DNA from: Candidatus Saccharimonadales bacterium
GTDB taxonomy: Bacteria > Patescibacteriota > Saccharimonadia > Saccharimonadales > JAYRRP01
Direction of reading: 5' to 3'
NCBI GenBank assembly: GCA_041906765.1
Contig: JAYRIP010000004.1
Coordinates: 270-64,269, forward strand
DNA: 64,000 bases
Shown: positions 1,012-43,266 of the stretch, piece after piece
Numbering within the stretch: the first letter of the stretch is position 1
Layout: every line of letters begins with the position of its first letter
Notes under the pieces: generated by a model
Seen by the model: the letters and a program-made list of their open reading frames with translations, nothing else
What the model was told of the DNA's origin: nothing
The model's database searches: none
Program-made: the position numbers and the translations under genes

Positions 1012-2304
1012 TTATAATGCAGTATCGATTCTTCGGTATATTGTTCTGTCTTTAACGAATAGCGGGATATTCAGTCCTCTTATAAACCCATCCTGTTCGC
1101 TTAAAGTTCCTTGCTTGAGTGTGTAACTTGCAAAGTTGCGGAAGTGATCCCGCTCAGTCAGCTTCAGCCCATGATCTTTGATGAGCTGGCTGGTCATGCG
1201 CTTGTGTTGTTCGATCCGTTTGAACAGCAGCTCACTCGGCTCAACATCATCCAGCTCTCCAGCCTCGATCAAACCCAGTATCTGCTCAATTATCATGTTG
1301 GCAGTAATAGATCTTTCAGGGCAATCCGGATCTTTTGTTGACTTTGTGCAGTGGTAATAAACATGCCTGTTTCTCCCGCCGTCTTTACGTTTCTTATAAT
1401 GTTCTTCAACTGTCAGCCGGGATCCGCATGACCCACAGTAGAACAGATGCTTGAACGGGAATTTCTTTGAGCCCCAGGCTGGCTTGTTATCCGGGACTAA
1501 GGCGGCCATTCTGCCGCGAACTATATTGAATAACTCTTTGGTGACGATTGGCTCATGTTTACCCTGATATAACGGTCCACCGTCCGGATATGCAAAGAAG
1601 CCATAGTAAAACGGATTCGTTAGTATCCGGTAAATCTGACTGAGCGAGAGCTGTGCTCCGGATTTGGTTGTGAATCCTATACTGTCCAGCCAATCTTTTA
1701 TTGTCCGCCCACTTTGGTTTTGCAATCCTGACCGCTCAAACATCTCCCTAACGATTGGCGCACGGTCTGTATCCAGTACTATGTCTTTCACACCCCCGAA
1801 CGACCGGTTAATATAACCGATTGGAGCTGCGCCTGGTCGCCACCCCATCTCGCATTTGGCTCTTATGCCACGTTTTACATTAATACCTCTGTTGTCATTC
1901 TCAAGTTTTGCCTGTGAGCATAGGATCATCAGCAGGAACTTTTCATTCGGGGTGTTACTGAAGTTTTGTGAGAACGTCCGGATTCGCTGCAGTCGGTTCA
2001 TATCCATAAGATCAACCAGCGAACCCAGATCTCCCGCATTACGACTCAGTCGGTCTGGTGCCCATGTCAGAATGCCGTCGTATTCTCCGTTTCGGATATC
2101 ATGCAAGAGCTGATTGAATACCGGCCTGCAGCCTGATTGTTTGGCAGAGAAGCTCTCGCGCTGTATGGTTACCACATTCAGGCCTTCTCGCTCCGCCATA
2201 GCCTGCATCTCTTTAATTTGGGAGTCGATGCTCATAGCCTGTCGCTCATCGCTTTCGGTCGACTTGCGGGCATACAGGCAGTATCTGATTGATTGCTGTT
2301 CCAT
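1012..2304 (-). CDS. Large serine recombinase (resolvase N-domain, recombinase domain, Zn-ribbon)
   Basis: YARKSTESDERQAMSIDSQ is the catalytic-Ser region. It has a long recombinase domain and a CGSCGS...YYHC zinc ribbon. Start chosen at the ATG (MEQQSIRY), whereas the ORF track extends to a GTG at 2364. Lies 9 nt upstream of the FtsK-like gene on the same strand. Confidence 0.88.
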   Translation of the reverse strand: MEQQSIRYCLYARKSTESDERQAMSIDSQIKEMQAMAEREGLNVVTIQRESFSAKQSGCRPVFNQLLHDIRNGEYDGILTWAPDRLSRNAGDLGSLVDLMDMNRLQRIRTFSQNFSNTPNEKFLLMILCSQAKLENDNRGINVKRGIRAKCEMGWRPGAAPIGYINRSFGGVKDIVLDTDRAPIVREMFERSGLQNQSGRTIKDWLDSIGFTTKSGAQLSLSQIYRILTNPFYYGFFAYPDGGPLYQGKHEPIVTKELFNIVRGRMAALVPDNKPAWGSKKFPFKHLFYCGSCGSRLTVEEHYKKRKDGGRNRHVYYHCTKSTKDPDCPERSITANMIIEQILGLIEAGELDDVEPSELLFKRIEQHKRMTSQLIKDHGLKLTERDHFRNFASYTLKQGTLSEQDGFIRGLNIPLFVKDRTIYRRIDTAL

Positions 2305-2452
2305 TGCAAGGAACAAGGTACCGCAAGGGGGTACAAAGTCCAGCAGATAATTAAGAAGTTGCACCCCTATGGAAAATATTGGCTTCTACAGGTAAAATTA
2401 GGAGTGAAAGGTAGCCGAAAGGCTTTGTTTTTATTGACTACACCATTAAGTT

Positions 2453-3367
2453 ATGCCTGATGCAACCCTGAATACACAAACCAACACAGTAGAAGCTTAT
2501 GATATTGCTGCCCCGCGACCAGATTCGCTTATCCAGTCTTTACGCGCGTTTGGCTACGATCTTTCAACTGCAATTGCGGACATAGTTGATAACAGTATCT
2601 CAGCCGGTGCAAAAAACATAGCAATTGATTTCTACTGGGACGGCAAAGATTCATATATAGCTATCTGGGATGATGGCTGCGGCATGACGGAAGACGAACT
2701 GATTAATGCCATGCGGCCAGGCAGCCGCAATCCGCTTGAGGAACGAAGCTCTAAGGATCTTGGACGTTTTGGTCTTGGACTGAAGACGGCATCATTCTCT
2801 CAGTGCAAAAAACTCACGGTCGCCTCCAAGTCTGCTGGTGGCAATTTTTCGGTGCGATGCTGGGATCTGGATTATGTTACACAGCACGGTGAGTGGCGGT
2901 TGTTGAAAAAAGGCTCGCATGTACTCGGTCGACTCTTGGATAAACTGCCGGATACCGACTCCGGAACTCTGGTATTGTTGGAAAATCTTGACCGTCTGAC
3001 AAAAGGCACCAAAGTTGATGACAAGAATGATCATGACAAATTTCTGGAGGATGCCGAAAGAGTTAAAGACCATCTTGCTATGGTCTACCACCGTTATCTC
3101 GAGCGAATCAACGGTCCAAGAATATTTGTTAACTCCAGACAGGTTAAGCCTTGGGATCCTTTCCTTACTTCTGAAACTGCCACCCAGAATCTGACTGAAG
3201 AAGCACACGACATTCTCGGCGGCAGACTCGTAGTCAAACCATACGTTCTACCGCATGTGTCCAAAATCAGCCAAGAGGTTCACGACAGGGCCGCCGGTCC
3301 GAAAGGCTGGAACGCCCAACAGGGCTTTTATGTATATCGCAACTCGAGGTTGCTTGTCGCCGGTTAA
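2453..3367 (+). CDS. MORC-like GHKL (HATPase_c_3) ATPase, apparently 3'-truncated
   Basis: Bergerat-fold motifs are DIVDNSISAGA (N box), DDGCGM (G1) and GRFGLGLKTAS (G2). The ORF stops at ...YVYRNSRLLVAG*, where the sequence runs into the antisense of a methylase fragment. Family members I recall are considerably longer. Confidence 0.7.
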   Translation: MPDATLNTQTNTVEAYDIAAPRPDSLIQSLRAFGYDLSTAIADIVDNSISAGAKNIAIDFYWDGKDSYIAIWDDGCGMTEDELINAMRPGSRNPLEERSSKDLGRFGLGLKTASFSQCKKLTVASKSAGGNFSVRCWDLDYVTQHGEWRLLKKGSHVLGRLLDKLPDTDSGTLVLLENLDRLTKGTKVDDKNDHDKFLEDAERVKDHLAMVYHRYLERINGPRIFVNSRQVKPWDPFLTSETATQNLTEEAHDILGGRLVVKPYVLPHVSKISQEVHDRAAGPKGWNAQQGFYVYRNSRLLVAG

Positions 3368-3448
3368 ACGCTTTACCAGGGCTTCGTCGGTGGCGCTGCC
3401 ACAAGCCAGGCGGTGACTGCCTAAATGCATGATTTGTCCGGCTTTCAT
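3347..3448 (-). pseudogene. N-terminal fragment (about 30 codons) of a second DNA methyltransferase
   Basis: MKAGQIMHLGSHRLACGSATDEALVKRLTGDKQP parallels KPGDMFTLGKHRLICGDAMDPAVIKRLAGDLEP of the intact upstream methylase. Its ATG overlaps that gene's TGA (ATGA at 3445-3448). No DPPY or catalytic domain follows. Confidence 0.6.
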
Positions 3449-4731
3449 AGCTGTACCGCCTTTTCGCCAGTTATGGCTTCCCAGCGATCAATAATGACTT
3501 GGCAGAACACTGGCTCGATTTCGCACAACAGCGCCACCCGCTTCATCTGCTCACAAGCCAGAAGGGTTGATCCGGAGCCTCCGAAACAGTCCAGCACCAC
3601 ATCGCCAATCCTAGTGCAACGCTTCAGCGGCTTTTCGTGCAAGGTCAGTGGTTTCTGCGTCGGGTGCTGATATTCCAATCCAGGTTCACGTTTGGCAAGC
3701 CAGATATCAAAAATATCAATGATATCGTCAATCGCCCGGTTACCCGGTGAGACATCTTTATTGAGAATCTCGGTCAGGTTGTGGATGTCTGACAAATATG
3801 GTGTTCCGCGTGTGGCGTAGACACAGGGCTCAAATGATTTGTTGAAAGCCACATCCGGCACAGGGTTAAAGCCGTTTTTGATCCACAGGCACACCCGGCG
3901 GTTCGTCAGTCCGTATTGCCCCATCAGTGCCTGCACCAGCCCGATATATGTCTGGTCGCAGTACATGAAGACATGGGCGTCCTCAGTCATAACTCCCAGA
4001 ACATTTGTCAGGGCTGCGCCCAGAAATGCGGCATAATCCTCATCCGTTTTGGCATCTTTGGTTTTACCGCCATAACTGGCCTTGTTGCCTACGCCCTTGC
4101 TGTAATCAAGTGAGATGTTATAGGGCGGATCACAGTAAAGCATAACCGGTTCTAGGTCGCCCGCCAGGCGTTTAATGACCGCCGGATCCATAGCGTCGCC
4201 GCAGATAAGCCGGTGCTTACCGAGCGTAAACATATCACCGGGCTTAATGGCGGTATCCCGGGCCTTTTTGATGGCCTTATCCTCGTCGAAGTCATCATCT
4301 TCGATGTCCAGACTGGCATTCCAGATGTCGCCAAGGTCAATGTCATCAAAACCGACCGACAGCAGTTCATCGATATCGAAGTGTTTCAGCAGATCAAGGT
4401 CGAATTCACCGGTGTTGCGGTTTAACCTCAGGTTGAGAGCGCGCTCCCGCTTTTCGTCCAGGCTTATGAACACCACCGGTACGGATGTATAACCCAGCTT
4501 AACCGCAGCCTTCAGGCGCTGATGGCCGCCTATAATTACACCGTGACGTTCAGGGTGCGAATTGACCACCAGGGGCTCCACCATCGAATACTGACGGATG
4601 CTTTCCACCAGCTGCGCGAAGTCCTGATCTGAGATTTTGCGCGGATTATAGACCGCGGGCTTCAGTTCTGAAACCGCTACCTGTTTGACTGTCAAATTTT
4701 TATTTTTGGGTTCCGAAATAGTCCGAGACAT
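3445..4731 (-). CDS. ParB-like nuclease domain fused to N6/N4 DNA methyltransferase
   Basis: N-terminal ParB/Srx-like region (ELKPAVYNPRKI...GGHQRLKAA). Methylase motif IV is CDPPYN and motif I is DCFGGSGST. Start at ATG 4731, preceded by GAGAGGAG 8 nt upstream. The ORF-track start at 4749 lies inside that SD. Confidence 0.88.
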   Translation of the reverse strand: MSRTISEPKNKNLTVKQVAVSELKPAVYNPRKISDQDFAQLVESIRQYSMVEPLVVNSHPERHGVIIGGHQRLKAAVKLGYTSVPVVFISLDEKRERALNLRLNRNTGEFDLDLLKHFDIDELLSVGFDDIDLGDIWNASLDIEDDDFDEDKAIKKARDTAIKPGDMFTLGKHRLICGDAMDPAVIKRLAGDLEPVMLYCDPPYNISLDYSKGVGNKASYGGKTKDAKTDEDYAAFLGAALTNVLGVMTEDAHVFMYCDQTYIGLVQALMGQYGLTNRRVCLWIKNGFNPVPDVAFNKSFEPCVYATRGTPYLSDIHNLTEILNKDVSPGNRAIDDIIDIFDIWLAKREPGLEYQHPTQKPLTLHEKPLKRCTRIGDVVLDCFGGSGSTLLACEQMKRVALLCEIEPVFCQVIIDRWEAITGEKAVQL

Positions 4732-4989
4732 AATTAAAACTCCTCTCATCTCGTTTATGTGGTAGACAGGGGTTCAACTTTTCAATACAAAAAGCGACTC
4801 CGTTTTAACCAGCCTTTATTGGCTTTATTCGGCCTGTACGGCCTTAGGGTCTACTTTGACCCGGTCAATTCGTGAGTCGCCTCGTATGACGTACTTCGTT
4901 ATATCTCGTAGAATTGGTTAGCACTCAGCTAACTACTTTAAAAATACGCCCGCTACGTCAGCAAGTCAATGGAGTGCTACGATTAATAT

Positions 4990-6186
4990 ATGAGCTACGT
5001 GCATCTCAGGGATCGCAAATATTATGAGGATATCTACGACCGTCACACTGTAGAAGACGGTCGGCGTGGCATGGGCCACTACGCCGAATTTTATGACGAA
5101 CTGGAAAAGAAACTTCCAAAAGATGACACCATTGACCGCCCCGGCAATGCAGCTTTGTTAAACATGTTTTGCATGCAGGTTGTGGGCAATGATCTGTTAT
5201 ACCGATACGAAAACCGTGAGCAGTACATAAATGAGCGGATGGCTGAAGACGAAGCCAAAGACAATCAGATTGCTACTGCCAGGCTATCTGAAGAGCCCTA
5301 CTGCCATCATTGCGGTAAACAGGGTTTGCGGATTACCGACAAATCACTGATGCACCGTAAAGAAAACGCCAGGTATGACGATCCTGAAGACGTATTGTTC
5401 ATGCTTCATTGCCCGCACTGCGATAAAAACAGCGCATTTTGGGAAGACGGGACCGCCTGGAAACCGAAACTCACGCTTTGCCCTAGGTGCAAAGCTGAGA
5501 CAACCCGTAAAATTACCACGACCAAAACGGCCATTACCTTTACATACAGCTGCCCATCCTGCGGTTATAGCTATAAGGACAAAATGGATCTAAAAGATAA
5601 AAAGAAGAAGGTGCAGCCCGATCCGGATTACGACAAAGACCGTATCCATTTCTGTCTAATAGATAAAGAATTCCGTGACAAGCTGTACGCCATAAAAGGC
5701 GGTTTCGAGCGCATGGCTGAATTTGGCAAAAAGTACAAGGAAAAGGAAGATAACAAACATATTTACGATGCCGTAGCCGAGCTTAAACAGCCGAAGATCG
5801 CCGAACTCCCGGATCTATTAATACCAGCACTTGAGAAGGCTGGCTATACAGAATTCAGCCTGGATAAACCGGAAATGGGTCGTGACGTGTTCATAGGTTT
5901 TAACTGCCTGGACAGTAAGACTGATCGTGGTGATTACGACAGCAGGAATACGTTGAGAAAGCTGGTCATCAAAGCCCTGAAAGGTACCAACTGGCGTTTG
6001 ACGACTGATGGAATTTCCTACCGCCTTGGCTATCTGAACGGTCGACTGCATGCTTACGAACGCGAAGAGGATCTCAAGAAGCTTGTTATGCAAGAACAGA
6101 AGCTGAAGAACAAATCCAAGGTCAAGGATGATCCCGATAATGCCTGGCGCATGAAAACACCAGACGGAAAGGAGATAATTTATTAA
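4990..6186 (+). CDS. Hypothetical protein with four CxxC pairs (two predicted Zn-ribbons)
   Basis: 398-aa ORF with CHHCGK, CPHCDK, CPRCKA and CPSCGY, and a Lys/Asp/Glu-rich C-terminal half. No family recognised. Confidence 0.6.
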   Translation: MSYVHLRDRKYYEDIYDRHTVEDGRRGMGHYAEFYDELEKKLPKDDTIDRPGNAALLNMFCMQVVGNDLLYRYENREQYINERMAEDEAKDNQIATARLSEEPYCHHCGKQGLRITDKSLMHRKENARYDDPEDVLFMLHCPHCDKNSAFWEDGTAWKPKLTLCPRCKAETTRKITTTKTAITFTYSCPSCGYSYKDKMDLKDKKKKVQPDPDYDKDRIHFCLIDKEFRDKLYAIKGGFERMAEFGKKYKEKEDNKHIYDAVAELKQPKIAELPDLLIPALEKAGYTEFSLDKPEMGRDVFIGFNCLDSKTDRGDYDSRNTLRKLVIKALKGTNWRLTTDGISYRLGYLNGRLHAYEREEDLKKLVMQEQKLKNKSKVKDDPDNAWRMKTPDGKEIIY

Positions 6187-6395: not shown

Positions 6396-6827
6396 CTATT
6401 TTTTGCTGGCTTTGCTGGAAATAGCTATTTTCTTTGGCGCGGGTAATGGCGTGAGGGGTACGGATACTTTCAGCACTCCTTCATCCAGGTTGGCCTTGAT
6501 ATTGTCGGCATCAGCCCGTTCAGGCAACTGGATGCGGCGGTAGAAGCTGTTGTTGCTTTCCCGCACTACGTACTTCTTGTCCTTGTCTTCCTCTTTTTCA
6601 TGGCGTTCAGCGCTGATGACCAGCGCGCCGTCCTCCACCTGGATATTGACATCATCCTGGACGAAGTTAGGCAGATGCGCTTCAACCACCATTTCGCTAT
6701 TCTTGGTATAAACGTCCGTGGTAGGAATGTTCACACCTTTAAACGGGGATATAAAGTCCTCACCAAAGAACTGTTGTTGTAACGCAGACAGTTCTGCAAA
6801 TGGATCCCAGCGTACTAGTTTGCTCAT
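6396..6827 (-). CDS. hsp20: Small heat-shock protein, Hsp20/alpha-crystallin family
   Basis: 143 aa with an alpha-crystallin domain (DVYTKNSEMVVEAHLPNF...GVLKVSVP). Paralog of 44775..45224. Confidence 0.93.
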   Translation of the reverse strand: MSKLVRWDPFAELSALQQQFFGEDFISPFKGVNIPTTDVYTKNSEMVVEAHLPNFVQDDVNIQVEDGALVISAERHEKEEDKDKKYVVRESNNSFYRRIQLPERADADNIKANLDEGVLKVSVPLTPLPAPKKIAISSKASKK

Positions 6828-7695: not shown

Positions 7696-7983
7696 ATGAT
7701 ATCAGATATTAAACGACGAGCATTGCACCGCAGTAAAATCCTTCAGGGTCAGCTTAAAGGCATTGAAAAGATGATCGACAGCGAAGAATACTGCATGGAT
7801 ATTATTACGCAAACTCTTGCAATCCAAAAATCACTCAGTTCGCTAAATAAGCTGATTCTTGAAAATCACCTGCGTACACATGTTACCGATAACTTGTCCT
7901 CTGCCGACGAGAAGAAGCAGGCAGAAGCCGTAAAAGAGCTGCTTGGTTTGTATGAACTAACACACATACGGGGCAAGCAATAA
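7696..7983 (+). CDS. CsoR/RcnR (DUF156) family metal-sensing transcriptional repressor
   Basis: 95 aa. GQLKGIEKMIDSEEYCMDIITQTLAIQKSL...ENHLRTHV is the typical DUF156 helix pattern. Ligand positions read x-C-H-H. Confidence 0.88.
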   Translation: MISDIKRRALHRSKILQGQLKGIEKMIDSEEYCMDIITQTLAIQKSLSSLNKLILENHLRTHVTDNLSSADEKKQAEAVKELLGLYELTHIRGKQ

Positions 7984-8001
7984 CCAAGTAAAGGAGGGGT
8001 T

Positions 8002-8457
8002 ATGAACAAAGAAAGCATTTTGTACGGTGTAATAGGCTTGTTAGCTGGCGTTATTATCGCTGGCTTCACGGCAAGCTACGCCGTCAACAACAATAACAAC
8101 GGCGTGATGCGTATGATGGGTATGCACAGTAGCTCATCAAGCCAAAACATGATGAGCGATAACGATAACAGCATGACAATGGCTGAAATGTCCAGCAACC
8201 TTAAAGATAAGACAGGTGATGATTTTGATAAAGCCTTCATTGCCGAGATGATTACGCACCACCAGGGAGCGATTGATATGGCTAATCTCGCCAAGCAAAA
8301 CGCCAAGCATGATGAAATAAAGAACCTGGCTGACGCCATTGTTACTGCTCAAACCAAAGAAATTAACGACATGAAATCGTGGCAATTACAGTGGGGCTAT
8401 GGTTCATCAAGCACCGACACTAGCAGCCATGACATGAACGATATGATGGGTCATTAG
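8002..8457 (+). CDS. DUF305 family protein (metal-resistance associated), N-terminal TM
   Basis: DFDKAFIAEMITHHQGAIDMA...HDEIKNLADAIVTAQTKEINDMKSW, with a Met/Ser-rich linker. Confidence 0.85.
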   Translation: MNKESILYGVIGLLAGVIIAGFTASYAVNNNNNGVMRMMGMHSSSSSQNMMSDNDNSMTMAEMSSNLKDKTGDDFDKAFIAEMITHHQGAIDMANLAKQNAKHDEIKNLADAIVTAQTKEINDMKSWQLQWGYGSSSTDTSSHDMNDMMGH

Positions 8458-8467
8458 GGGGCACGCT

Positions 8468-8641
8468 ATGAAAGCGCACACGATAGTAATGATTGTTCTG
8501 GCAGCTGTGGGCGTGATGATGATCGCCTTTGCCTCAACGCTAAAGGTTAGCGTTGGTTTCGGCTTGCTGTTTCTGATTTGTCCGCTGATGATGCTCGGCA
8601 TGATGGCAATGATGGGTGGTGATAAACACGACCACAGCTAA
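8468..8641 (+). CDS. Small Met-rich membrane protein (DUF2933-like)
   Basis: Hand-translated 57 aa: MKAHTIVMIVLAAVGVMMIAFASTLKVSVGFGLLFLICPLMMLGMMAMMGGDKHDHS*. SD AGGGGG lies upstream. The CPLMM motif and His tail are typical of small proteins in metal-resistance loci. Below the ORF-track cutoff. Confidence 0.6.
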   Translation: MKAHTIVMIVLAAVGVMMIAFASTLKVSVGFGLLFLICPLMMLGMMAMMGGDKHDHS

Positions 8642-8661
8642 TGACATGAGGCAGTTAAGTC

Positions 8662-9813
8662 ATGCTTGAAGCAATCTGGCACGCTCTCTCAACGTCTTTC
8701 GCTATGGGCTGGGAAATCCTGTGGCCGTTAATCTTGGGCTTTGCTCTGTCGGGGATTATTCAAGCTGTCGTATCGCACCGCCAGATGAGCAAACTACTCC
8801 CTGACGATAAACCGAAGACACTGGCTATTGCCACGGGTCTAGGGGCAGCTTCATCGTCCTGCTCTTACGCTGCCGTTGCCCTGGCTCGTTCCCTGGTGAA
8901 GAAAGGAGCTAATTTTACGTCTGCGATGGCATTTGAGATTGCCAGTACCAACCTGGTAATTGAAATAGGGATTATTATGATTGTTCTACTCGGCTGGCAG
9001 TTTACGTTGGCTGAGTTCCTTGGTGGGCCGCTTATGATAGTTCTGCTGGCAATCTTACTTCGCCGCTTCTTGACACCAAAACTGGTTGCAGCGGCGACCA
9101 GACAAGCCCAGAGAGGATTGTCAGGCAAAATGGAAGGCCATGCCACCATGGACGATATGTCCGTCAAGGGCAACACTTCATTTTGGCAAAAACTACGGTC
9201 GCCAGAAGGGATAACCGCTACCAGCCACTTTTACGTCATGGACTGGGTATCAGTCTGGAAAGACCTGGCAATTGGACTATTGCTGGCAGGTGCGATTGCC
9301 GCTTGGGTTCCAGCTGGTTTCTTTGAGAAGTTGTTCTTGACATCACACCCCCTGCTATCGGCTCTCTGGGGGCCCCTTATCGGGCCGTTTATTGCAGTTA
9401 TCTCCTTCGTTTGTAGCGTCGGTAACATACCATTGGCAGCAGTACTATGGAATGGCGGTATAAGCTTTGGTGGCGTTATCAGCTTTATCTTTGCTGACCT
9501 GATTGTGTTCCCGATACTGCGTATTTACAAGAAATACTACGGCATGAAAATGGCCACGGTGTTATTTGCTACCTTTTACGCATCAATGGCTGGTGCTGGC
9601 TATTTAGTGGAGCTGCTATTCTGGCTCACTGGTATCACGCCGACCGCTCGCAATTTACAAATCCTTGAACCAGGTATCACACTAAATTACACCAGTGTCC
9701 TGAATATCTTATTCCTGGTGATTTCTACTGCTCTGGTATGGCGGTTCTTGCGAACTGGTGGGCCTCACATGCTTAAGATGATGAGTGGCGAAGCTAGGCA
9801 ACACTCCCATTAG
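8662..9813 (+). CDS. Predicted permease (UPF0718/ArsP-type)
   Basis: 383 aa and polytopic. N-terminal pattern WEILWPLILGFALSGIIQA...GLGAASSSCSYAAVALARSL resembles the ArsP/YraQ permease family. Confidence 0.75.
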   Translation: MLEAIWHALSTSFAMGWEILWPLILGFALSGIIQAVVSHRQMSKLLPDDKPKTLAIATGLGAASSSCSYAAVALARSLVKKGANFTSAMAFEIASTNLVIEIGIIMIVLLGWQFTLAEFLGGPLMIVLLAILLRRFLTPKLVAAATRQAQRGLSGKMEGHATMDDMSVKGNTSFWQKLRSPEGITATSHFYVMDWVSVWKDLAIGLLLAGAIAAWVPAGFFEKLFLTSHPLLSALWGPLIGPFIAVISFVCSVGNIPLAAVLWNGGISFGGVISFIFADLIVFPILRIYKKYYGMKMATVLFATFYASMAGAGYLVELLFWLTGITPTARNLQILEPGITLNYTSVLNILFLVISTALVWRFLRTGGPHMLKMMSGEARQHSH

Positions 9814-9820
9814 TCACAAA

Positions 9821-10705
9821 TCAGTTACTGACATGCAGCTGTTTCAATATCCGGCATATTGCCAAAGATAGCCATAAGCCGCTGTCATAACCAGCATTTT
9901 TCAGAATTTTGAGATGCCACAGCCCGTCCGGTGACTGGTTATCTGCAAACCATTGTATGGCTTTACACATCCGTGGCTCGTTTTCAGAAAACCCTAACAG
10001 CGACAGACTATCCATGGCGGATATGAGATCAGTAAACCAGAACGGAAAGGTGAACCTGAGCCAGAAATCAGGCGCGCTTCTATCTGGATAGCTGTCTTTC
10101 TTAAACAGGCTGGAGAGCAGCAGCTTGCCAGCAGCTTGCGCTTCAGCAGTTTGCCTGAATGCCGGGTGCGCTGCATATGCCCGCAGGACTATTCCTGTCA
10201 CCATATGCGAAAACGGCCTGGTCCGGTCCGGCTCAATCGTGGCTGTGTTCATGGCAATAACATCGAGTTTACTGTTATGTGTTCTGAGCGGAATAGTCCA
10301 GCCGCCGTCATGTTGCCTGATATATGCCAGCCACCCGAAGGCTTTCCTGATACGCGGATCATCACCATATCCGGCTTTGATGAGCAGTTCCATCATGGCA
10401 GCGGTATAGTACGGCGTATACTGATTCCCAAGTATGCCGCGTATATCGCCACTGCTAGTTTGAAAGCTGAAGAGCCACTCAGCTGCTTTTTGTATGGCAG
10501 GACTTCGCTTATCGAAGGCATACATTTCAACCAGATAACCGAGGTTGCGAAAGGTCTCGAGCTGGTTATAGTTTTCAGTAGTGCGTATCTTTTTATTGCC
10601 ACCCGGGTAAAGCCATGAGCCATCCGGCTGCTGTTTGCGCATTGTCTTCACTCCGCCAGGTAAATTCCAAAGAACCTCTGTGTTCATGTCGGGTTTTTCA
10701 AGCAA
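9821..10705 (-). CDS. Prenyltransferase/squalene-oxidase-repeat (alpha/alpha toroid) protein, paralog A; true start unresolved
   Basis: QW-like repeats (QQPDGSWLYP, RQHDGGWTIP, NQSPDGLWH). Roughly 65-70% identical by eye to 18766..19746. Homology continues upstream through 10706-10792, where no ATG/GTG/TTG exists. The track start at 10705 is a TTG. Confidence 0.75.
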   Translation of the reverse strand: MLEKPDMNTEVLWNLPGGVKTMRKQQPDGSWLYPGGNKKIRTTENYNQLETFRNLGYLVEMYAFDKRSPAIQKAAEWLFSFQTSSGDIRGILGNQYTPYYTAAMMELLIKAGYGDDPRIRKAFGWLAYIRQHDGGWTIPLRTHNSKLDVIAMNTATIEPDRTRPFSHMVTGIVLRAYAAHPAFRQTAEAQAAGKLLLSSLFKKDSYPDRSAPDFWLRFTFPFWFTDLISAMDSLSLLGFSENEPRMCKAIQWFADNQSPDGLWHLKILKNAGYDSGLWLSLAICRILKQLHVSN

Positions 10706-12074: not shown

Positions 12075-12388
12075 CTTCTCTCGAAAGACTATAGGGTTTA
12101 TTCCTCGGTTTTAGAATAGTAAGCGCTACAAGTGTGGCATTTGTTCGGTTATGCGATACGCATAACATAAGCCGGACCAATCATCCACTTTTCGGACACT
12201 GCTTTTTTATAATGTCCTATTTTGTCCTATTACCTCTGTCCAGGGGTACCAGACCCACATGCTCAGCCAATGAAGATGCGGCTTTTGGTCGGTACTCTTT
12301 TTGGACGAGTCATTAAAATAGGCACCCAAATATAGTAAAACAATCCAAACATGTTGACATCATTGAGTGTTCATGGTTTATTCAGTTT

Positions 12389-13747
12389 ATGGAAGTGGAT
12401 CCTATGGTGCCCGAAGTCAGGCGAGTGTTCGGAGCAGAAATTGGTTTTGGTTTGCACGCCGAGATTAATGGCAAAGTACTCTCTGCTACGTCCTATGACG
12501 ACAATAACCCCCTTAAAGACTCATACACGCTGCACAAAGCATGGGGCGCACGGAAAGAAGATATATTAGAACAAATAAAAATACCGGGGCATAATGATAA
12601 GGGTTTCTTGAGCAACGGCGCACGTTTTTACATTGACCAGCTTGTTACTCCTGAATATTGTACGCCCGAGGTTTCTTCGGCTGAACACTTAGTGTTATAT
12701 GAACTATCGGCTGAGAAGTTTATGTTGAATGTCCTTAGAGCCTTAAAAGAAACAAAAGTTATCGATAAATATTACCTAAATAAAAGAACGACCGATCAGC
12801 TTGGGAATTCTTGGGGTTATCACGAAAATATACTATCGAATGTACCGGTGAGCAAACAAAACATCGATTTAATAGCTGCGTTTAATGTGACAAGAGCAAT
12901 CTACACCGGTGCCGGCGGTCTCGTAAAATCTAGCAAAGATGAATTTCAGTATGTCACTTCACCAAGATTATATGTTTCTCGTTGCCTATCTCAACCTTCG
13001 CGTACTGGCGTAAATAAGCCTATAGTTTGCGAAGACAACACTAATTTTGAAAATACTCATTACCGTATGCACCAAGTGAGTTCTGATGCCACCTTGTCAC
13101 CATGGTCAATACGGATGAAACATGCCACAAATTCATTGCTGGTAAAAGCCCTGGAGTCGGGTCAAGATTTCTCTGTATTCCATATTGAGGAGCCGATAGA
13201 AGCCGCAGCGACAATTGTCGGTGATCTGGCATTAAAAAGTGTTATTGAGCTAAAAAATGGCATAAAGATCAAGCCCCACGAATGGCAGACGGAGTTTGCT
13301 GATGAGTTGAGCATGTACTTTGAGACTGACGAATTTACTAAGGATGAACAGTGGGCCCTGGACCAAATTTATGAAGTCTGTGATGACCTGGCATGCGATC
13401 CATTACTGGCAGCAAACAGGGTAGAATGGGTCGCCCGTCGTGAATATTTGAGAGAAGTGCGTGACAGATTATCTGATTCGAATAATACCCTGCGAAACGC
13501 AGACTACACCTGGGATTCATTGAATAGACAAGGTGTTGCCGTGGCCAAACGGAAAAATGGCTGGGGATGGCACGGTTTCAAAAATAAACCCACCGACAAA
13601 GACATAAACCACGCCATGCTGAACCCGCCGCAAAACACCAGAGCAGCATACAGGGCTAAACTGATAAGAGAAGATGAGGCTTCGTCTGTATTTGATTGGC
13701 ATATCGTTGGGGAAGAGAATAACTATATTCCGCCATTCAGCAAATAA
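12389..13747 (+). CDS. Divergent Pup ligase/deamidase (PafA/Dop) family carboxylate-amine ligase homolog
   Basis: Family blocks run along the full length: RVFGAEIGFG, FLSNGARFYIDQLVTPEYCTPE, GNSWGYHENIL, VTRAIYTGAGG, EWVARREYL and PPQNTRAAYRAKLI. Alternative start at ATG 12404. Confidence 0.75.
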   Translation: MEVDPMVPEVRRVFGAEIGFGLHAEINGKVLSATSYDDNNPLKDSYTLHKAWGARKEDILEQIKIPGHNDKGFLSNGARFYIDQLVTPEYCTPEVSSAEHLVLYELSAEKFMLNVLRALKETKVIDKYYLNKRTTDQLGNSWGYHENILSNVPVSKQNIDLIAAFNVTRAIYTGAGGLVKSSKDEFQYVTSPRLYVSRCLSQPSRTGVNKPIVCEDNTNFENTHYRMHQVSSDATLSPWSIRMKHATNSLLVKALESGQDFSVFHIEEPIEAAATIVGDLALKSVIELKNGIKIKPHEWQTEFADELSMYFETDEFTKDEQWALDQIYEVCDDLACDPLLAANRVEWVARREYLREVRDRLSDSNNTLRNADYTWDSLNRQGVAVAKRKNGWGWHGFKNKPTDKDINHAMLNPPQNTRAAYRAKLIREDEASSVFDWHIVGEENNYIPPFSK

Positions 13748-13927: not shown

Positions 13928-15598
13928 ATGAGCGAAATAACAGGTAATGCCCTAATCTCTGCATACGATAAAACCGGCATTGTAGAATTTGCTGATGGTC
14001 TCGCAGAACAGGGCTGGCAAATATACGCTTCTGGAGGAACTGCCAGAAAAATTGGAGAGGCTGGAATCGGGGTTAACGACGTCTCTGAGCTTGTTGGTGG
14101 TGAGGCTATTCTAGGACATCGAGTGGTCACTCTATCGCGGGAAGTTTACGCTGGCCTCTTAGCAGATCAGAGTAAAGCCGAGGACATGGAAGAATTATCA
14201 AGACTTGGTATTCCATTGATTGGTTTAGCGTGTGTCGATATGTATCCTCTTGAAGCAGAAATTGCAAAGCCCGGCGCGACTACAAAAGATGTAATTGAGC
14301 AGACCGATATTGGAGGTCCAACTCTACTTAGAGCAGCAGCGAAGGGGAGACGCATAGTTTTATCTGCTGCCGAGCAACGTCAACCTGTACTGGATTGGCT
14401 CAGTCAAGGCAAACCCGATGAGGAAGCCTTCCTTGAAGAACTGGCAGCGCGGGCAGAATACGAGGTTACACGCTATACCTTAACCCTCGCAAAGTATTTA
14501 GGCGGTACCGGTGTAAGCGGTTCTATAGCGCGACTTAACTCTAGGACAAAATACGGAGAAAATCCTCAGCAGGAAAAAGCAGGATTTTATGCTGACAATC
14601 GAGTAAACACTGATCCCCTCGGTCTTGATCAATTTACTCATGTTCAGGGTATGGAACGAAGCTACGTCAATATGACGGACATTGATCGACTATTACAGAC
14701 TTCAACCCATATTGCCGCAGGTTTTGAGCGTAATTTCGGTGAAGTGCCTCCAATGGCCGTTGGTGTGAAGCACGGTAATGCTTGTGGTGCAGCGGTGGCC
14801 GAGACACTTGTAGAAGCCGTAGGGAAAATGATTGAAGGTGACACGCGAGCTATTTTTGGTGGTGTGGTCATGCTCAACGGTGTCATTGATAAAGACGTGG
14901 CTGAGACGCTTATGAAACACATAATGGAGGGCGAAAGCTCGCGTTTACTTGACGGCGTAGTAGGTTCTGGTGTTACCGACGAGGCACTTGAATTGTTAAG
15001 CCGTAAGAAATTGCGTGTCGTTATTAACCCAGCTTTAGCGAACCTAAATGAAGCTTCATTAGATGCGACACGTCGCGTGAGACCAGTTCGTGGAGGTAAT
15101 CTTGAACAGCCAAACTATTCATTCGTCCAAGATCTATCAGCTGAATATATGCAGCAACACGGCGAACTTATCGAGCAACAGAAACGAGACATGATTCTGG
15201 CTTGGGCAGTTGGCAGCACGAGCAATAGCAATACTATTACGTTAGTAAAAGAGGGTAAACTCCTCGGCAACGGTGTAGGCCAGCAGGATCGCGTTGGGGC
15301 GGGCCAACTAGCTATTACCAGAACGACTATTGAAATGCCTACCATAGCCGACCAAGGAGACCATCTGGTAGTGAGTACGCACCTAAACAAGCAAAAGCTT
15401 GAAGGCGCCGTTGCATATAGTGATAGCTTCTTTCCTTTTCCTGATGGACCAGCGTTATTAGCTGAGGCAGGCGTGAAGGCAATTTTAACCTCTAGTGGAT
15501 CTATCGCTGATGAAAAGGTGATTAAAACCCTCACTGATGCAGGAGTTAGCGTAGTGATGGTACCCGATAAAGTTGGACGCGGCTTTTATTCTCACTAA
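13928..15598 (+). CDS. purH: Bifunctional AICAR transformylase / IMP cyclohydrolase
   Basis: N-terminal MGS-like domain (ALISAYDKTGIVEFA...ASGGTA) followed by an AICARFT domain. SD AAGGAGG upstream. Confidence 0.92.
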   Translation: MSEITGNALISAYDKTGIVEFADGLAEQGWQIYASGGTARKIGEAGIGVNDVSELVGGEAILGHRVVTLSREVYAGLLADQSKAEDMEELSRLGIPLIGLACVDMYPLEAEIAKPGATTKDVIEQTDIGGPTLLRAAAKGRRIVLSAAEQRQPVLDWLSQGKPDEEAFLEELAARAEYEVTRYTLTLAKYLGGTGVSGSIARLNSRTKYGENPQQEKAGFYADNRVNTDPLGLDQFTHVQGMERSYVNMTDIDRLLQTSTHIAAGFERNFGEVPPMAVGVKHGNACGAAVAETLVEAVGKMIEGDTRAIFGGVVMLNGVIDKDVAETLMKHIMEGESSRLLDGVVGSGVTDEALELLSRKKLRVVINPALANLNEASLDATRRVRPVRGGNLEQPNYSFVQDLSAEYMQQHGELIEQQKRDMILAWAVGSTSNSNTITLVKEGKLLGNGVGQQDRVGAGQLAITRTTIEMPTIADQGDHLVVSTHLNKQKLEGAVAYSDSFFPFPDGPALLAEAGVKAILTSSGSIADEKVIKTLTDAGVSVVMVPDKVGRGFYSH

Positions 15599-15726
15599 AA
15601 TAAACAGGCCGAATAATTGACCTGGCACCTGAACCGTCTAAAGATTCGTCTATTCAATCTTGCTTATGCTTGGTAATTGCCGATTGGCAGGGGATAATTA
15701 CTTACATCTAATCGGAGAACCCGTGC

Positions 15727-17175
15727 ATGGCAAACCTTGAATACATGGGTGAAGCAGTCCCACCAGCTAATATTTTGGCAGCACGTTATGCAAGCCCTGA
15801 AATAGTGACCCTCTTTTCTAGCCAAGCGCAAGTTTTCATGGAACGCGGCCTCTGGATAGAAGTGATGCGAAAACAAGCTGAGCTCGGCTTGCCGATACCG
15901 GATGATGCAATTAATGATTACGAGACCATGCAAGATACTGTTGATCTGGCATCAATCCGCCGCCGCGAAGAAGTGACTCATCATGATGTGAAAGCTCGAA
16001 TTGAGGAATTTAACGCTCTGGCAGGTCATCAATATGTGCATACTGGTATGACATCCCGCGATGCAACCGAAAACGTCGAACAAATGCAGATCCTCAAGGG
16101 GCTTGAGATTATTTCTGACCGTACGATCTCGACACTAGGACGGTTTAGTTTGCGAGCTCTACAGTTTACTGAATTGCCCATGACAGGAAGATCGCATAAT
16201 GTTGCCGCACAGACCATTACGCTCGGCAAACGCTTTGCTAATTTTGGTGAAGAACTGCTGAATGGCCATGAAAGGTTACAAACTTTGCGGGATGGCTATC
16301 ACCTACGTGGTATTAAAGGTCCGGTCGGAACACAACAAGATATGCTTGATCTATTCGAAGGCGATGCCACAAAGGTAGCTGAGTTGGAGACCCATATTGC
16401 TGAGGAGTTAGGCTTTGATGGAACGCTTAATAGTGTTGGTCAAATTTATCCTCGGTCCATGGACTTTGATACGGTGACCGCACTCCGGCAACTCGTGTCT
16501 GGACCTTCTAACTTTGCTACCACGCTACGACTGATGGCAGGCCAAGAATTAGCTACAGAAGGATTTAAACCGGGTCAAGTTGGCTCTAGCGCTATGCCCC
16601 ATAAAATGAATGCTGCCAAGTCAGAACGCATCAACAGCTTGAAAGCTGTCTTGAGTGGCCATGTTGTTATGGCATCAGAGCTAGCTGGCAACCAGTGGAA
16701 TGAGGGTGATGTCAGCTGCTCGGCCGCGCGTAGAGTATTTGTGCCGGATTCATTCTTCGCCGCAGATGGCATATTGCAGACCACCATGGCAGTGCTTGAT
16801 GGCTTTGGTGCATATCCGGCAGTCATTGAAAAAGAATTAGAGCGTTATCTACCATTTCTCATCACTACGAAAGCATTGATGGCCGCTGTGAAGGCAGGAG
16901 CAGGTCGTGAGGATGCACATGAAGCCATCAAAGAACATGCAACAAACATTGCGCTAGAAATGCGCGAGGATGGTCTCACAGTGAATAATTTGATCGACCG
17001 TCTTGCCGAGGATCAACGCATGAATGTTTCTAAGGACACACTTGGAAACGCTATGACGCAACCACTAGAACTTACCGGTCTCGCAAAAACACAAATAGCG
17101 ACCTTTGCCGATAATGTTCAGAAACTTGTTAATCAAAAACCTGAACTTGCTGCATATAAACCAAGCGTCGTATAG
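15727..17175 (+). CDS. purB: Adenylosuccinate lyase
   Basis: Fumarate-lyase signature GSSAMPHKMN and the N-terminal RYASPE pattern. 482 aa. Confidence 0.93.
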   Translation: MANLEYMGEAVPPANILAARYASPEIVTLFSSQAQVFMERGLWIEVMRKQAELGLPIPDDAINDYETMQDTVDLASIRRREEVTHHDVKARIEEFNALAGHQYVHTGMTSRDATENVEQMQILKGLEIISDRTISTLGRFSLRALQFTELPMTGRSHNVAAQTITLGKRFANFGEELLNGHERLQTLRDGYHLRGIKGPVGTQQDMLDLFEGDATKVAELETHIAEELGFDGTLNSVGQIYPRSMDFDTVTALRQLVSGPSNFATTLRLMAGQELATEGFKPGQVGSSAMPHKMNAAKSERINSLKAVLSGHVVMASELAGNQWNEGDVSCSAARRVFVPDSFFAADGILQTTMAVLDGFGAYPAVIEKELERYLPFLITTKALMAAVKAGAGREDAHEAIKEHATNIALEMREDGLTVNNLIDRLAEDQRMNVSKDTLGNAMTQPLELTGLAKTQIATFADNVQKLVNQKPELAAYKPSVV

Positions 17176-18765: not shown

Positions 18766-19746
18766 GTGAACATGCAACGTGAATGGGCATCGATTTTTTT
18801 CTATTCACCACTCGAGCCATTGGTATATAACGCTAATCCTTCAATATCTTATTTTGCCAAAAGGGATTTAACCACTACACCTGTCGGCAAAGTCGAAACA
18901 CTATGGCAATTACCAGCCGCCCAAAAGATTGTTCGAAAACAACAAGTAGACGGCAGTTGGTTATACCCGAGCGGAAATAAAAAGATACGGACTACTGAAA
19001 ATTATAATCAATTAGAAACCTTCCGTAACCTTGGCTACTTGGTTGAGATGTTTGGCTTCAACAAAAAAAGTGCTACAGTCCGAAAAGCGGCAGAGTTTTT
19101 ATTCAGTTTTCAAACACCAGAAGGGGACATACGCGGAATACTAGGCAATCAGTATGCGCCATATTACACCGCCGCCATAATGGAGCTCCTTATTAAAGCC
19201 GGGTATAGTGATGATCCCCGGATTACGAAGGGTTTTGATTGGCTAGTCACTATCCGTCAAAACGACGGTGGTTGGGCCATACCGCTGCGGACTAGAGACA
19301 AAAAACTTGATGTTATTACCATGAACACTGAGACAATTAAACCCGATAAAAACAAACCGTCTTCACACATGGTAACGGGTATTGTTCTACGAGCCTACGC
19401 AGCACACCCAAAGTACCGTGAATCAATTGAAGCACATGAAGCAAGCGAGTTATTACTATCAAGTCTATTCAAGCGTGACAACTATCCTGATAGAAGCAGC
19501 CCTGACTATTGGCTGAAGTTTACCTACCCATTTTGGTTTACCGATCTTATCTCGGCGCTTGATAGTTTATCTATACTCGGCACGCCAAAATCTCATCCCA
19601 AAATTAAGCAGGCTATGCAATGGTTTATCAAAGCACAACAAAAAGATGGCACCTGGCACCTTAAAGTTTTGAAAAACCTCAAATATGACAGTGAATCATG
19701 GTTTGCATTATCAATTTGTCGCATTGTAAAACGACTTTATAGCTAA
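18766..19746 (+). CDS. Prenyltransferase/squalene-oxidase-repeat (alpha/alpha toroid) protein, paralog B
   Basis: QQVDGSWLYP, RQNDGGWAIP and QQKDGTWH repeats. Full-length paralog of 9821..10705. Confidence 0.78.
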   Translation: MNMQREWASIFFYSPLEPLVYNANPSISYFAKRDLTTTPVGKVETLWQLPAAQKIVRKQQVDGSWLYPSGNKKIRTTENYNQLETFRNLGYLVEMFGFNKKSATVRKAAEFLFSFQTPEGDIRGILGNQYAPYYTAAIMELLIKAGYSDDPRITKGFDWLVTIRQNDGGWAIPLRTRDKKLDVITMNTETIKPDKNKPSSHMVTGIVLRAYAAHPKYRESIEAHEASELLLSSLFKRDNYPDRSSPDYWLKFTYPFWFTDLISALDSLSILGTPKSHPKIKQAMQWFIKAQQKDGTWHLKVLKNLKYDSESWFALSICRIVKRLYS

Positions 19747-27013: not shown

Positions 27014-27673
27014 TCAGGAAGCTATATCCAAAAATTCACTTTCACCCATTTTTTTAGTTAGTCGCGACTTATCAATCACGTAGTTTTGTTTCGAAAACGA
27101 CACGATGCCTTCTTTGCGGAGTTTATTAAGTTCAATGCCCGTTGTCTCCCGGGTTAATCCGACCAGATCGGCAAATTCCTGCTGAGTAAATTTCATGGTG
27201 ATGAGTACTTTGTCACCGCGCATTTGTTTGCCAAAACGCATACTCAGGTAGTATAAGGTGTGTAATATCTTATCAGACGCGCGAGAGTATTGCAGGGCGT
27301 TAAGGCGTACCATTTGACCAACATAGGCGTCAATATAATGAAAAAGTAAAGTTTGTTGTAGAGATTTATTCGAGGCTAGTAACTTCTGAAAATCGCGCTT
27401 AGGAATACAATAAAGGACGGTGTCTGACGCGGCTTCAAAGAAAAACATGGAACTTTGCGCCCGATCAAATGTCCAGGCGGTAGGAAAAATCTCGTATTGC
27501 AGATTATATCCCAACACATTCATCTCACCATTGCCACTCAAGTTATACATACGAACCAAACCCTCTTTAATTACATACACTGCAGAAGGAACTTCTCCTT
27601 GGTATATAATTATTTCCCCTTTGGCAAATTTCCGGGTAGGGTAGGCAGTGAGTAACAACTGGAATTGCTCCAC
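27014..27673 (-). CDS. Crp/Fnr family transcriptional regulator (paralog 1)
   Basis: cNMP-binding-like beta-roll (GEIIIYQGEVPSAVYVIKEGLVRMY) and a C-terminal HTH (FADLVGLTRETTGIELNKL). GTG 27673 is chosen as the start by alignment with paralog 2. The track ORF extends to 27736. Confidence 0.85.
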   Translation of the reverse strand: MEQFQLLLTAYPTRKFAKGEIIIYQGEVPSAVYVIKEGLVRMYNLSGNGEMNVLGYNLQYEIFPTAWTFDRAQSSMFFFEAASDTVLYCIPKRDFQKLLASNKSLQQTLLFHYIDAYVGQMVRLNALQYSRASDKILHTLYYLSMRFGKQMRGDKVLITMKFTQQEFADLVGLTRETTGIELNKLRKEGIVSFSKQNYVIDKSRLTKKMGESEFLDIAS

Positions 27674-27822
27674 AATGGCTTTCCTCGTCTCCCCTCCATT
27701 AACTATCCGCCTAGTATTTAAGCATACTGACTGCAATCAAAAAACTTCTTCGTGCACTCAAACGTAAGTGTGTCAGTGTATAATAACCCCATAATGCGTA
27801 TATCTATTGCAGGAATTATGCG

Positions 27823-29691: not shown

Positions 29692-30372
29692 CTACACTTT
29701 TAGCTTTTTGCTTTGAAGCAAGCGACTGAGATCATAATTGTCATCAAGTAATTGATGCAGTTTGTTTACGTCTACCATATAATGACGACGCCGATGGCTA
29801 AGTATGCCTTTTTGTTCCAGCTTTTTTAGTTCGAGACCTGTAGTCTCGCGGGTCAGCCCTATAAAGTTCGCAAGATCTTGTTGAGTAAGAGGCAATGTAA
29901 TACGCACCATACTGCCTCTTATGTGCTTTCCGAAGCGGAGTATAAAGAAGTGCAAGGTATGTATGAGCTTTTGCGAGGCCTTGGACTGTTCAAGCGCATA
30001 AACGCGAACTTCGAAATTAAGATACTTTGTCACAATGTCGTGAAATTGTTGATATAAAACCTGATTGTCAGTACGCAGGTACTCTAGATAGTCTTCACGG
30101 CTAACAACAAAAAGTTCACAGGCAGAGAATGCTTCATAAAAAAATTGGGCACGTTTGACCATACCAAACACCCAGCCAGTGGGGAACATCTCATATTCAA
30201 GGTCAAACGAAATAGGCTTTTCAAGCCCGTCATTCGTGAGATTATATATTTTGACAATCCCTTTTTTAACAAAGTAAGCTGCTTGCGGCACTTCACCTTC
30301 GCACAAAATCAGCTCGCCTTTAGTAAAAGCTTTTACACGGTAACTTGAAAGGAACTGCCGTAACTCTTTCAT
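29692..30372 (-). CDS. Crp/Fnr family transcriptional regulator (paralog 2)
   Basis: GELILCEGEVPQAAYFVKKGIVKIY beta-roll and HTH LANFIGLTRETTGLELKKL. Start at ATG 30372 (MKELRQF). The track ORF extends to 30480. Confidence 0.85.
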   Translation of the reverse strand: MKELRQFLSSYRVKAFTKGELILCEGEVPQAAYFVKKGIVKIYNLTNDGLEKPISFDLEYEMFPTGWVFGMVKRAQFFYEAFSACELFVVSREDYLEYLRTDNQVLYQQFHDIVTKYLNFEVRVYALEQSKASQKLIHTLHFFILRFGKHIRGSMVRITLPLTQQDLANFIGLTRETTGLELKKLEQKGILSHRRRHYMVDVNKLHQLLDDNYDLSRLLQSKKLKV

Positions 30373-30506
30373 GACGAACCGCCTTGAGCCTTTTGTTACT
30401 CTAAACACAATTATACCCCATAAAGTGATGAAGTCACGATTTGTTAGCTGGACAACTCTAACATATCCCCTGGAAGTCAACCATACTAAGGCCGTACAAT
30501 ATAACT

Positions 30507-43165: not shown

Positions 43166-43266
43166 CCGGCAATGATTGTAGCAGGTTACAGAGGTCGGCT
43201 CAAGTATTTCATCAGTTCTAGTGTCACTGCTTGCGACTATTGGGCAGTTTTGCCATACTAATTTCC

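Follow-up and report, generated by a model that had tools for sequence, protein, structure and literature searches.

What might a member of the Pup ligase family do in a bacterium where the surrounding genes offer neither Pup nor a proteasome? Pupylation is regarded as a system of the Actinobacteria and Nitrospirae, tied to Pup, to Mpa/ARC and usually to the proteasome, and the question is raised here by a single gene at 12389-13747 on the forward (+) strand of a 64-kb stretch of DNA from a Candidatus Saccharimonadales bacterium (contig JAYRIP010000004.1), the whole of which we call the window. The gene encodes a 452-aa protein of the Pup ligase/deamidase family, to which PafA and Dop belong, and we refer to it below as the solo protein. 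Our answer, to which we assign a probability of roughly 0.55, is that it would be a stand-alone gamma-glutamyl amide ligase or amidase with the Pup-ligase fold, independent of any proteasome, with a remodelled nucleotide/phosphate site and with a substrate that is probably a peptide or protein. That substrate is probably something other than Pup, because the surroundings contain no gene for a tag, an unfoldase or a proteasome and because two conserved active-site residues are missing.

Membership of the Pup ligase family

The solo protein clearly belongs to the family of Pup ligases and deamidases, and by the NCBI thresholds it is neither Dop nor PafA. It scores 216.5 bits (E = 9.3e-64) on the Pfam profile PF03136 (Pup_ligase), whose cut-off is 25, and the match spans profile positions 41-438 of 441, while its scores against the two NCBI equivalog models fall below their cut-offs (158.5 bits against 492.3 for the Dop model, TIGR03688, and 137.3 bits against 551.3 for the PafA model, TIGR03686). 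The top solved structures by sequence are those of Dop (4b0r/5lrt, E = 1.6e-27), followed by PafA (4b0t, E = 1e-14). An AlphaFold2 model of the 452-aa protein, built from 26 homologues, has a mean predicted local distance difference test score (pLDDT) of 89.7 and a predicted template modelling score of 0.92, and in Foldseek comparisons it matches Dop over its full length at a template modelling (TM) score of 0.78-0.80 and the PafA-Pup complex at 0.75, the next best matches being YbdK, gamma-glutamylcysteine ligases and glutamine synthetases at TM <= 0.45. Both the model and these full-length matches display the glutamine synthetase-like beta-sheet cradle together with the small C-terminal domain. 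The first-pass annotation of the window had described a divergent PafA/Dop-family homolog that matches the family block by block, and the profile score, the fold and the alignment bear this out, since the family blocks NGARFYIDQLVTPEYCTPE, GNSWGYHENIL, VTRAIYTGAGG, EWVARREYL and PPQNTRAAYRAKLI are all present and aligned. It had also proposed a profile search and a structural superposition as checks on that description, and the significant Pup_ligase match and the model's resemblance to Dop and PafA are what these yielded.

The protein is far from alone. A search of 1.84 billion cluster representatives returned 2172 matches at E <= 0.001 (in 50%-identity clusters), 71 of them at E <= 1e-30, and most of the best 150 matches are solo proteins, 440-490 aa long, that score above canonical Dop. 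On a neighbour-joining tree of 185 sequences (Kimura-corrected identities, midpoint-rooted, without support values) the solo protein falls in a clade of 25, in which the clusters P0002 and P0003 are closest to it, followed by P0004, P0031 and P0032. This clade stands apart from one of 54 members, among them canonical Dop, PafA and 'PafA2', and apart also from about 86 solo proteins with an N-terminal GTEMEW-type motif. Clustering within ordinary PafA or Dop clades, which had been named beforehand as an outcome that would speak against a divergent homolog, is not seen on this rough tree, which places the protein in a lineage separate from both.

The closest named homologue, MCE7936716.1, is a 'hypothetical protein' of Candidatus Saccharibacteria bacterium CPR2 (Candidatus Saccharimonadota) and belongs to the P0002 cluster, which is 51% identical to the solo protein; when 185,579 species, each represented by one genome, were scanned, the close clade was found only in the CPR2 metagenome-assembled genome (MAG), and a metagenome scan returned relatives only at 25-29% identity. 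The ATP synthase beta subunit encoded in the window is, for its part, 84-86% identical to proteins named by NCBI as 'Candidatus Saccharibacteria bacterium', and these matches assign the window to a Saccharibacterium (Patescibacteria/CPR). A survey of the family reports Dop and PafA from Actinobacteria and Nitrospirae and single-copy homologues from some Planctomycetes, and does not mention Saccharibacteria or the Candidate Phyla Radiation (CPR) (PMC7947786). Our literature search on Pup ligase, PafA, UBact or proteasome accessory factor in Saccharibacteria, CPR or Patescibacteria found nothing relevant, and the text and supplements of a Patescibacteria genetics paper contain no mention of such a protein.

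Set beside the canonical enzymes, with residues numbered as in Acidothermus Dop and conservation taken from an alignment of 185 family members, the solo protein appears from its alignment to mix Dop-like and PafA-like features. Dop (TIGR03688; 4B0R, 5LRT, 7OXY) is the best match by sequence and by structure, and the two share the catalytic Asp (D94, here D83), the Mg ligands Glu8, Tyr92, Glu99, His155 and His241, the Pro of 'STPE' (here 'CTPE'), the alpha-loop Thr217 (T206) and the C-terminal domain. Unlike Dop, the solo protein has no Dop-loop, the roughly 37-residue insertion that Dop carries between beta1 and the NGAR strand: no sequence aligns to this segment, and the stretch from beta1 to NGAR is 54 residues long, where the reference Corynebacterium Dop has 71 and a PafA 36. 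It also reads D-Q-L-V-T-P-E-Y where Dop has D-H-A-H-P-E-Y, which is one residue longer and PafA-like (Table 1 of PMC7947786); it has Gly in place of Glu10, it lacks R227 and the TRDEPH loop, and it has no pup, mpa/arc or prcBA adjoining it in 64 kb. With PafA (TIGR03686; 4B0T, 4BJR) it shares the fold (TM 0.75), the length class of about 450 aa, the absence of the Dop-loop, and a distance of five residues from the catalytic Asp to the Glu of PEY, where Dop has four. It differs from PafA in having Q-L-V-T rather than V-G-S-H after the Asp (Val-Gly-Ser being PafA-specific) and 'CTPE' rather than 'ATAE' (Table 1 of PMC7947786), in the absence of the alpha-helix residues His188, Trp190 and Arg199 (the segment reads S-R-C-L-S-Q-P-S-R-T-G), in the loss of the GhExE motif and the TRDEPH Arg, and in having no Pup in the window.

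Two other groups invite comparison. The single-copy homologues described from Planctomycetes and sporadically from others (Hecht et al. 2020, PMC7947786) are like the solo protein in occurring as single copies outside the Actinobacteria and Nitrospirae and in being roughly equidistant from Dop and PafA (about 29-31% identity); compared by description only, they belong to other phyla, and they partly align with the Dop-loop, which is absent here. The metagenomic solo 'GTEMEW' clade (P0006, P0184, P0084) is likewise short (about 440-490 aa) and solitary, sits in CPR-like neighbourhoods with no AAA or proteasome gene nearby, and contains proteins that score above canonical Dop against the solo protein. 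It is nonetheless a separate clade, which keeps ExE, a TRDEPH-type Arg and His241 and has its own synteny, three of its loci (L006, L014 and L016) sharing AspRS, a CBS-domain protein and a DsbA-like thioredoxin, and it represents a second, much larger solo clade.

The search for Pup, an unfoldase and a proteasome

Partners were sought in the window by Pfam scans of about 55 open reading frames (ORFs), by a six-frame scan for C-terminal motifs and among 95 intergenic small ORFs. The first-pass annotation had reported that no AAA unfoldase or 20S subunit lies in these 64 kb, and this holds, the Pfam scans having found neither an AAA+ unfoldase nor a proteasome subunit. Its further statement that no ORF ends in GGQ or GGE stands with one small correction: in the six-frame scan of the window no credible ORF had GG[QE] or R[TS]G[EQ] at its C-terminus, the sole GGQ-ending stretch being a 26-codon stop-to-stop piece without a start codon, inside the recombinase gene. 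None of the 95 small ORFs matches the Pfam Pup model. In a UBact-type system, a small ORF ending in R[T/S]G[E/Q] reportedly adjoins Dop/PafA-like, Mpa-like and proteasome genes; no such ORF is present in the window or in nine related loci, the one close approach being a glutaredoxin that ends in LRGQ. The immediate neighbours are, as had been stated, genes for an npdG-like F420_oxidored protein, purH and purB.

The only real gene in the window whose product ends in Gly-Gln encodes a glutaredoxin of the YruB/NrdH type (43231-43497, +; C-terminus …ALRGQ), which lies 30 kb away. We considered this protein as a candidate modifier and rejected it: it is an ordinary member of the YruB/NrdH family, its LRGQ ending is probably a coincidence, and the fetched loci of the relatives hold no homologue of it.

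The neighbourhoods of the relatives are equally bare of partners. The loci examined were those of P0002, P0003, the CPR2 MAG, P0004, P0006, P0184, P0084, P0083 and P0036, and in these eight further genomic contexts no AAA, proteasome or Pup-like gene lies within 10 kb. LexA, DciA, WhiB and AddA are found near the homologue at the P0002, P0003 and CPR2 MAG loci, and a Mur-ligase-family gene, Ddl and LeuRS near that of P0004. At the P0002/P0003 loci L002 and L007-L009, from CPR2-type genomes, LexA has WhiB-like and DciA-like genes beside it, a short way downstream of the homologue; WhiB usually counts as an actinobacterial protein. Small ORFs adjoining the homologues (69, 52, 96, 50 and 57 aa) are mutually unrelated, and none is Pup-like. 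Even the nearest relative has different surroundings, the two loci having in common only the gene itself and AddA, which lies 18 kb away, and the idea of a conserved operon partner was rejected accordingly.

A locus with partners looks quite different. In our positive control (L022, 6074-9582), a distant family member on a high-G+C metagenome contig, the 590-aa Pup_ligase protein has a Mpa-like ATPase (AAA + Prot_ATP_ID_OB_C) directly upstream and a 63-aa ORF with the C-terminus QQGGE directly downstream, an arrangement that looks canonical. The Pfam Pup model misses this 63-aa ORF at E <= 0.001, a result that cautions against searching for Pup with a hidden Markov model only.

The same control bears on the explanation that the solo protein serves an ordinary Pup-like or UBact-like system that is merely dispersed, with the modifier and the unfoldase/protease genes elsewhere in the genome. 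The window covers 64 kb of a contig that is about 199 kb long, a Pup-like gene is small enough to escape notice, as the control's did with the Pfam model, and proteasome-free pupylation is known from Corynebacteria. Against such a dispersed system, none of the nine contexts shows a partner while the control locus does; there is one family member per locus where canonical systems have two; the protein falls outside the Dop/PafA clade and below both equivalog cut-offs; and Saccharibacteria and CPR are not among the phyla that carry Dop or PafA in the 2020 survey (PMC7947786). On balance we judge a dispersed system to be quite unlikely.

The active site and its possible chemistry

In Dop, Mg is bound by Glu8, Glu10, Tyr92, Glu99, His155 and His241, D94 activates water, and the 'highly conserved' R227 holds phosphate (PMC8599861); GhExE is an ATP-binding motif conserved throughout the superfamily (PMC7947786). 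Much of this apparatus is retained in the solo protein. Glu8 is kept as E17, and the catalytic block NGARFYIDQLVTPEYCTPE (12614-12670, +) provides Y81 (Dop Y92), the catalytic Asp D83 (Dop D94), E89 (Dop E99) and E94, assigned by alignment to Dop 4b0r and by family conservation. By alignment also, the GNSWGYHENIL block (12803-12835, +) supplies H145, the counterpart of the Mg ligand H155, and E146, while R226-M-H228 (13064-13072, +) retains Dop R239 and H241. The catalytic Asp, Tyr92, Glu99, His155 and His241 are thus all represented.

Two departures stand against this conservation. The first had been noticed in the first-pass annotation as a Glu-to-Gly change in the N-terminal motif RVFGAEIGFG, and we confirm it: G15-A-E17-I-G19 (12431-12445, +; codons gga gca gaa att ggt) is a degenerate GhExE nucleotide/Mg motif in which Gly19 takes the place of Dop Glu10, so that the motif reads GAEIG. 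The Glu10 column holds Glu in 169 of 173 aligned sequences and Gly only in the solo protein, P0002 and P0003 (3/173). The change is real and clade-specific rather than an error, because the NCBI and Logan assemblies independently agree. A search of the available literature found no published Dop E10A mutant. The second departure, which had been overlooked, is the loss of the phosphate-binding Arg: the TRDEPH loop, including Dop R227, is replaced by CEDNTNFEN, the equivalent loop KPIVCEDNTNFEN holds neither Arg nor Lys, and the Glu neighbouring the TRDEPH Arg is gone as well. The R227 column is R/K in 159 of 160 sequences outside the clade of 25, and is missing or different in 24 of the 25 members inside it. 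With R227 lost, altered chemistry or inactivity therefore becomes a more serious possibility than the Glu-to-Gly change alone had indicated.

Could the protein then be a pseudoenzyme, one that has kept the Pup-ligase fold and a binding or scaffolding role and has lost nucleotide-dependent catalysis? The GhExE Glu and R227 are catalytically important (PMC8599861; PMC7947786), the former is lost in only three of 173 aligned members, and the latter has disappeared together with its neighbouring Glu. The pattern of conservation nevertheless argues the other way. In an alignment of seven subclade sequences with only 34-51% identity, 60 columns are invariant, many of them at the active site, among them R79, Y81, D83, E89, E94, H145, E146, R169, R193, K210 and R226; H228 is likewise unchanged, and P0004, P0031 and P0032, members of the same subclade, keep ExE. 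Dead enzymes usually lose residues of the catalytic Asp and ligand type. The solo protein is also 51% identical to its CPR2 relative, against 34% for AddA from the same two genomes. From these alignments the protein is probably still an enzyme, and a pseudoenzyme appears unlikely.

If it is an enzyme, its substrate-binding side appears to be partly inherited and partly its own. In Dop, T217 hydrogen-bonds the C-terminal Gln of Pup, and Dop R221, like PafA R201, contacts the Pup C-terminus (PMC8599861). The corresponding segment here, which comprises the alpha-loop, strand beta7 and the next loop (residues 197-225; 12977-13063, +), aligns T206 with Dop T217 and K210 with Dop R221 and PafA R201, and also contains R205; the AlphaFold2 model is less confident in this block (pLDDT 69-79). 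The six-member subclade has invariant residues of its own, namely R205 in the alpha-loop, H245, W299, W322 and the GWGW insertion, that are rare or absent elsewhere in the family, and these residues suggest a different substrate pocket in the subclade. The GWGW insertion (residues 391-394; 13559-13570, +) is subclade-specific and invariant in the seven-sequence alignment, and its W392 is nearly without counterpart in the rest of the family.

The C-terminal domain matters for a further alternative, namely that the protein does not modify proteins but acts on small molecules, as a gamma-glutamyl amide ligase or amidase of the same sort as gamma-glutamylcysteine ligase or YbdK. No protein substrate has been found, the neighbours (npdG-like, purH and purB) are metabolic, and one relative (P0004) adjoins Mur-ligase and Ddl genes; with YbdK/GCS2 and glutamine synthetase the solo protein shares the superfamily's beta-sheet cradle and Mg/ATP chemistry on a gamma-carboxylate. 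Because the gene neighbours are not conserved, little can be made of this metabolic context. The likeness to Dop and PafA, by contrast, extends from end to end, C-terminal domain included, with a TM of 0.78 to Dop and of 0.45 to YbdK, whereas YbdK/GCS2 and glutamine synthetase lack that domain, match at TM of about 0.45 or lower and are 10-12% identical, YbdK at 11%; a Pfam scan of the solo protein gave no match to any of these families. The C-terminal domain is unique to pupylation enzymes (PMC8599861), and the solo protein retains its PPxxTRAxxR signature in the opening PPQNTRAAYRAKLI block (13625-13666, +; P413, P414, R418 and R422, by alignment). A purely small-molecule role therefore seems improbable to us, for all that it would fit the neighbours.

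Overall, we favour the reading given at the outset, that of a proteasome-independent gamma-glutamyl amide ligase or amidase, and its mechanism can be sketched as follows. The enzyme would be active and would bind the gamma-carboxylate of a glutamate or the gamma-amide of a glutamine, which would most likely stand at the C-terminus of a peptide or protein lying in a groove that the retained C-terminal domain closes. With Mg-nucleotide, and with phosphate bound in an altered arrangement, the enzyme would form or hydrolyse a gamma-glutamyl amide (isopeptide) bond, the direction being that of either a ligase or an amidase, and it would do so independently of any proteasome.

At the same time, several points weigh against this reading. 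Our work has found no substrate candidate. Glu10, a Mg ligand within GhExE, and R227 are both central in Dop and PafA (PMC8599861; PMC7947786), and because both are missing catalysis may be impaired or different. The partner search covers the 64-kb window, so an unlinked Pup-like gene may lie elsewhere; within the window, the negative result of the Pup profile on the 95 small ORFs is weak, because the Pfam model also missed the control's Pup-like ORF, and the C-terminal motif scan is the stronger evidence. Finally, the apparent placement in a separate lineage rests on a crude neighbour-joining tree with a midpoint root and without support values.

Genomic setting and significance

The gene itself can be read from two starts. 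Public gene calls (P0001) begin at Met6, the ATG at 12404, which gives 447 aa; the start at 12389 is more likely, because P0002 and P0003 both open with 'ME' and, up to the RVFG motif, are exactly as long as the 452-aa form. The same protein is present in the NCBI contig (198,718 bp) and in an independent Logan assembly. Its gene has a G+C content of 43.5% (z = -1.0 against the other genes of the window), and G+C at third codon positions is also within 1 standard deviation; recent horizontal acquisition was considered and rejected on these values.

Upstream lies a promoter-like element, which we regard as doubtful: TTGACA (12354-12359), 17 nt and TTTATT (12377-12382), together 12354-12382 on the + strand. 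The first-pass annotation had taken it to produce a leaderless transcript, and the hexamers are indeed present as quoted. A promoter scan does not call the element, however, because the second position of its -10 hexamer TTTATT is not the key A, and promoter-like sites in the region are not in excess (6, against 4.3 +/- 2.3 expected from shuffles). The element shows no conservation upstream of the homologues, one of which has a GAGGA Shine-Dalgarno-like sequence instead. The leaderless transcript is thus weakly founded and unproven.

Further upstream is a mobile or defence-type island (1012-6186), which comprises a large serine recombinase (1012-2364, -), a HATPase_c_3 protein that scores 247 bits against the PADLOC MzaB model (2453-3367, +), an N6/N4 DNA methyltransferase with a ParB-N domain (3445-4749, -) and a 398-aa protein with a weak zinc-ribbon match (4990-6186, +). 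A defence role for the solo protein was considered and rejected, since the protein matches none of the PADLOC models and the island with its recombinase, MzaB-like protein and methyltransferase, about 6 kb or more upstream, is separate.

Between the island and the gene lies a likely copper/metal-resistance module (7696-9813), made up of a CsoR/RicR-like repressor (7696-7983), a DUF305 protein (8002-8457), a 57-aa membrane peptide (8468-8641) and an ArsP_1/SO_0444-family Cu/Zn efflux permease (8662-9813). A paralogous pair with terpene-cyclase/prenyltransferase-type repeats and weak SQHop_cyclase matches (9821-10705, -, and 18766-19746, +) flanks the region on opposite strands and shares long near-identical sequence stretches. 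The purH-like and purB genes occupy 13928-17175, the former scoring 346, below the NCBI cut-off of 402, and the latter 362, above its cut-off of 326; reduced CPR genomes are generally regarded as lacking most de novo nucleotide synthesis. Elsewhere in the window, a 109-aa ORF (57334-57663, -) is evidently what gave a SET-domain match, the protein lysine methyltransferase fold, at E = 2.8e-12, the best among the small ORFs, since the motif 'GFVNHSDDPNC' lies within it. Two HSP20-family small heat-shock proteins (44775-45224 and 6396-6827) and two Crp/Fnr-type regulators (27014-27736 and 29692-30480) are encoded as well, and the set of stress and regulatory genes is fairly rich for a reduced genome.

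Regardless of the chemistry of this one protein, its gene belongs to a set of solitary Pup-ligase-family proteins that is large and diverse, seems not to have been studied, comes mostly from metagenomes and is encoded at least in part by ultrasmall epibiotic bacteria with reduced genomes. Should the partners simply lie elsewhere in the genome, the finding would shrink to a divergent orthologue. A far bolder proposal, which we consider speculative and quite improbable as it stands, is that Saccharibacteria, and probably other Patescibacteria, carry an undescribed proteasome-free enzyme that modifies proteins or peptides, sharing its ancestral stock with PafA and Dop, with a groove of its own (R205, H245, GWGW) and a remodelled phosphate site. 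Such an enzyme might attach an unrecognised modifier to proteins of the bacterium itself, or take it off again. A still more speculative idea is that its target might be the Pup of the host, or host proteins that carry Pup; it arises because cultivated Saccharibacteria live on actinobacterial hosts and Actinobacteria are the main users of Pup.

In this context, the natural loss of Glu10 and R227 from an active site that is otherwise intact offers a ready-made test of which residues the chemistry needs. If active, the solo proteins would point to a substrate or modifier that is new for the Pup-ligase fold, and they may show what role the ancestor of PafA and Dop played before its own recruitment to the proteasome.

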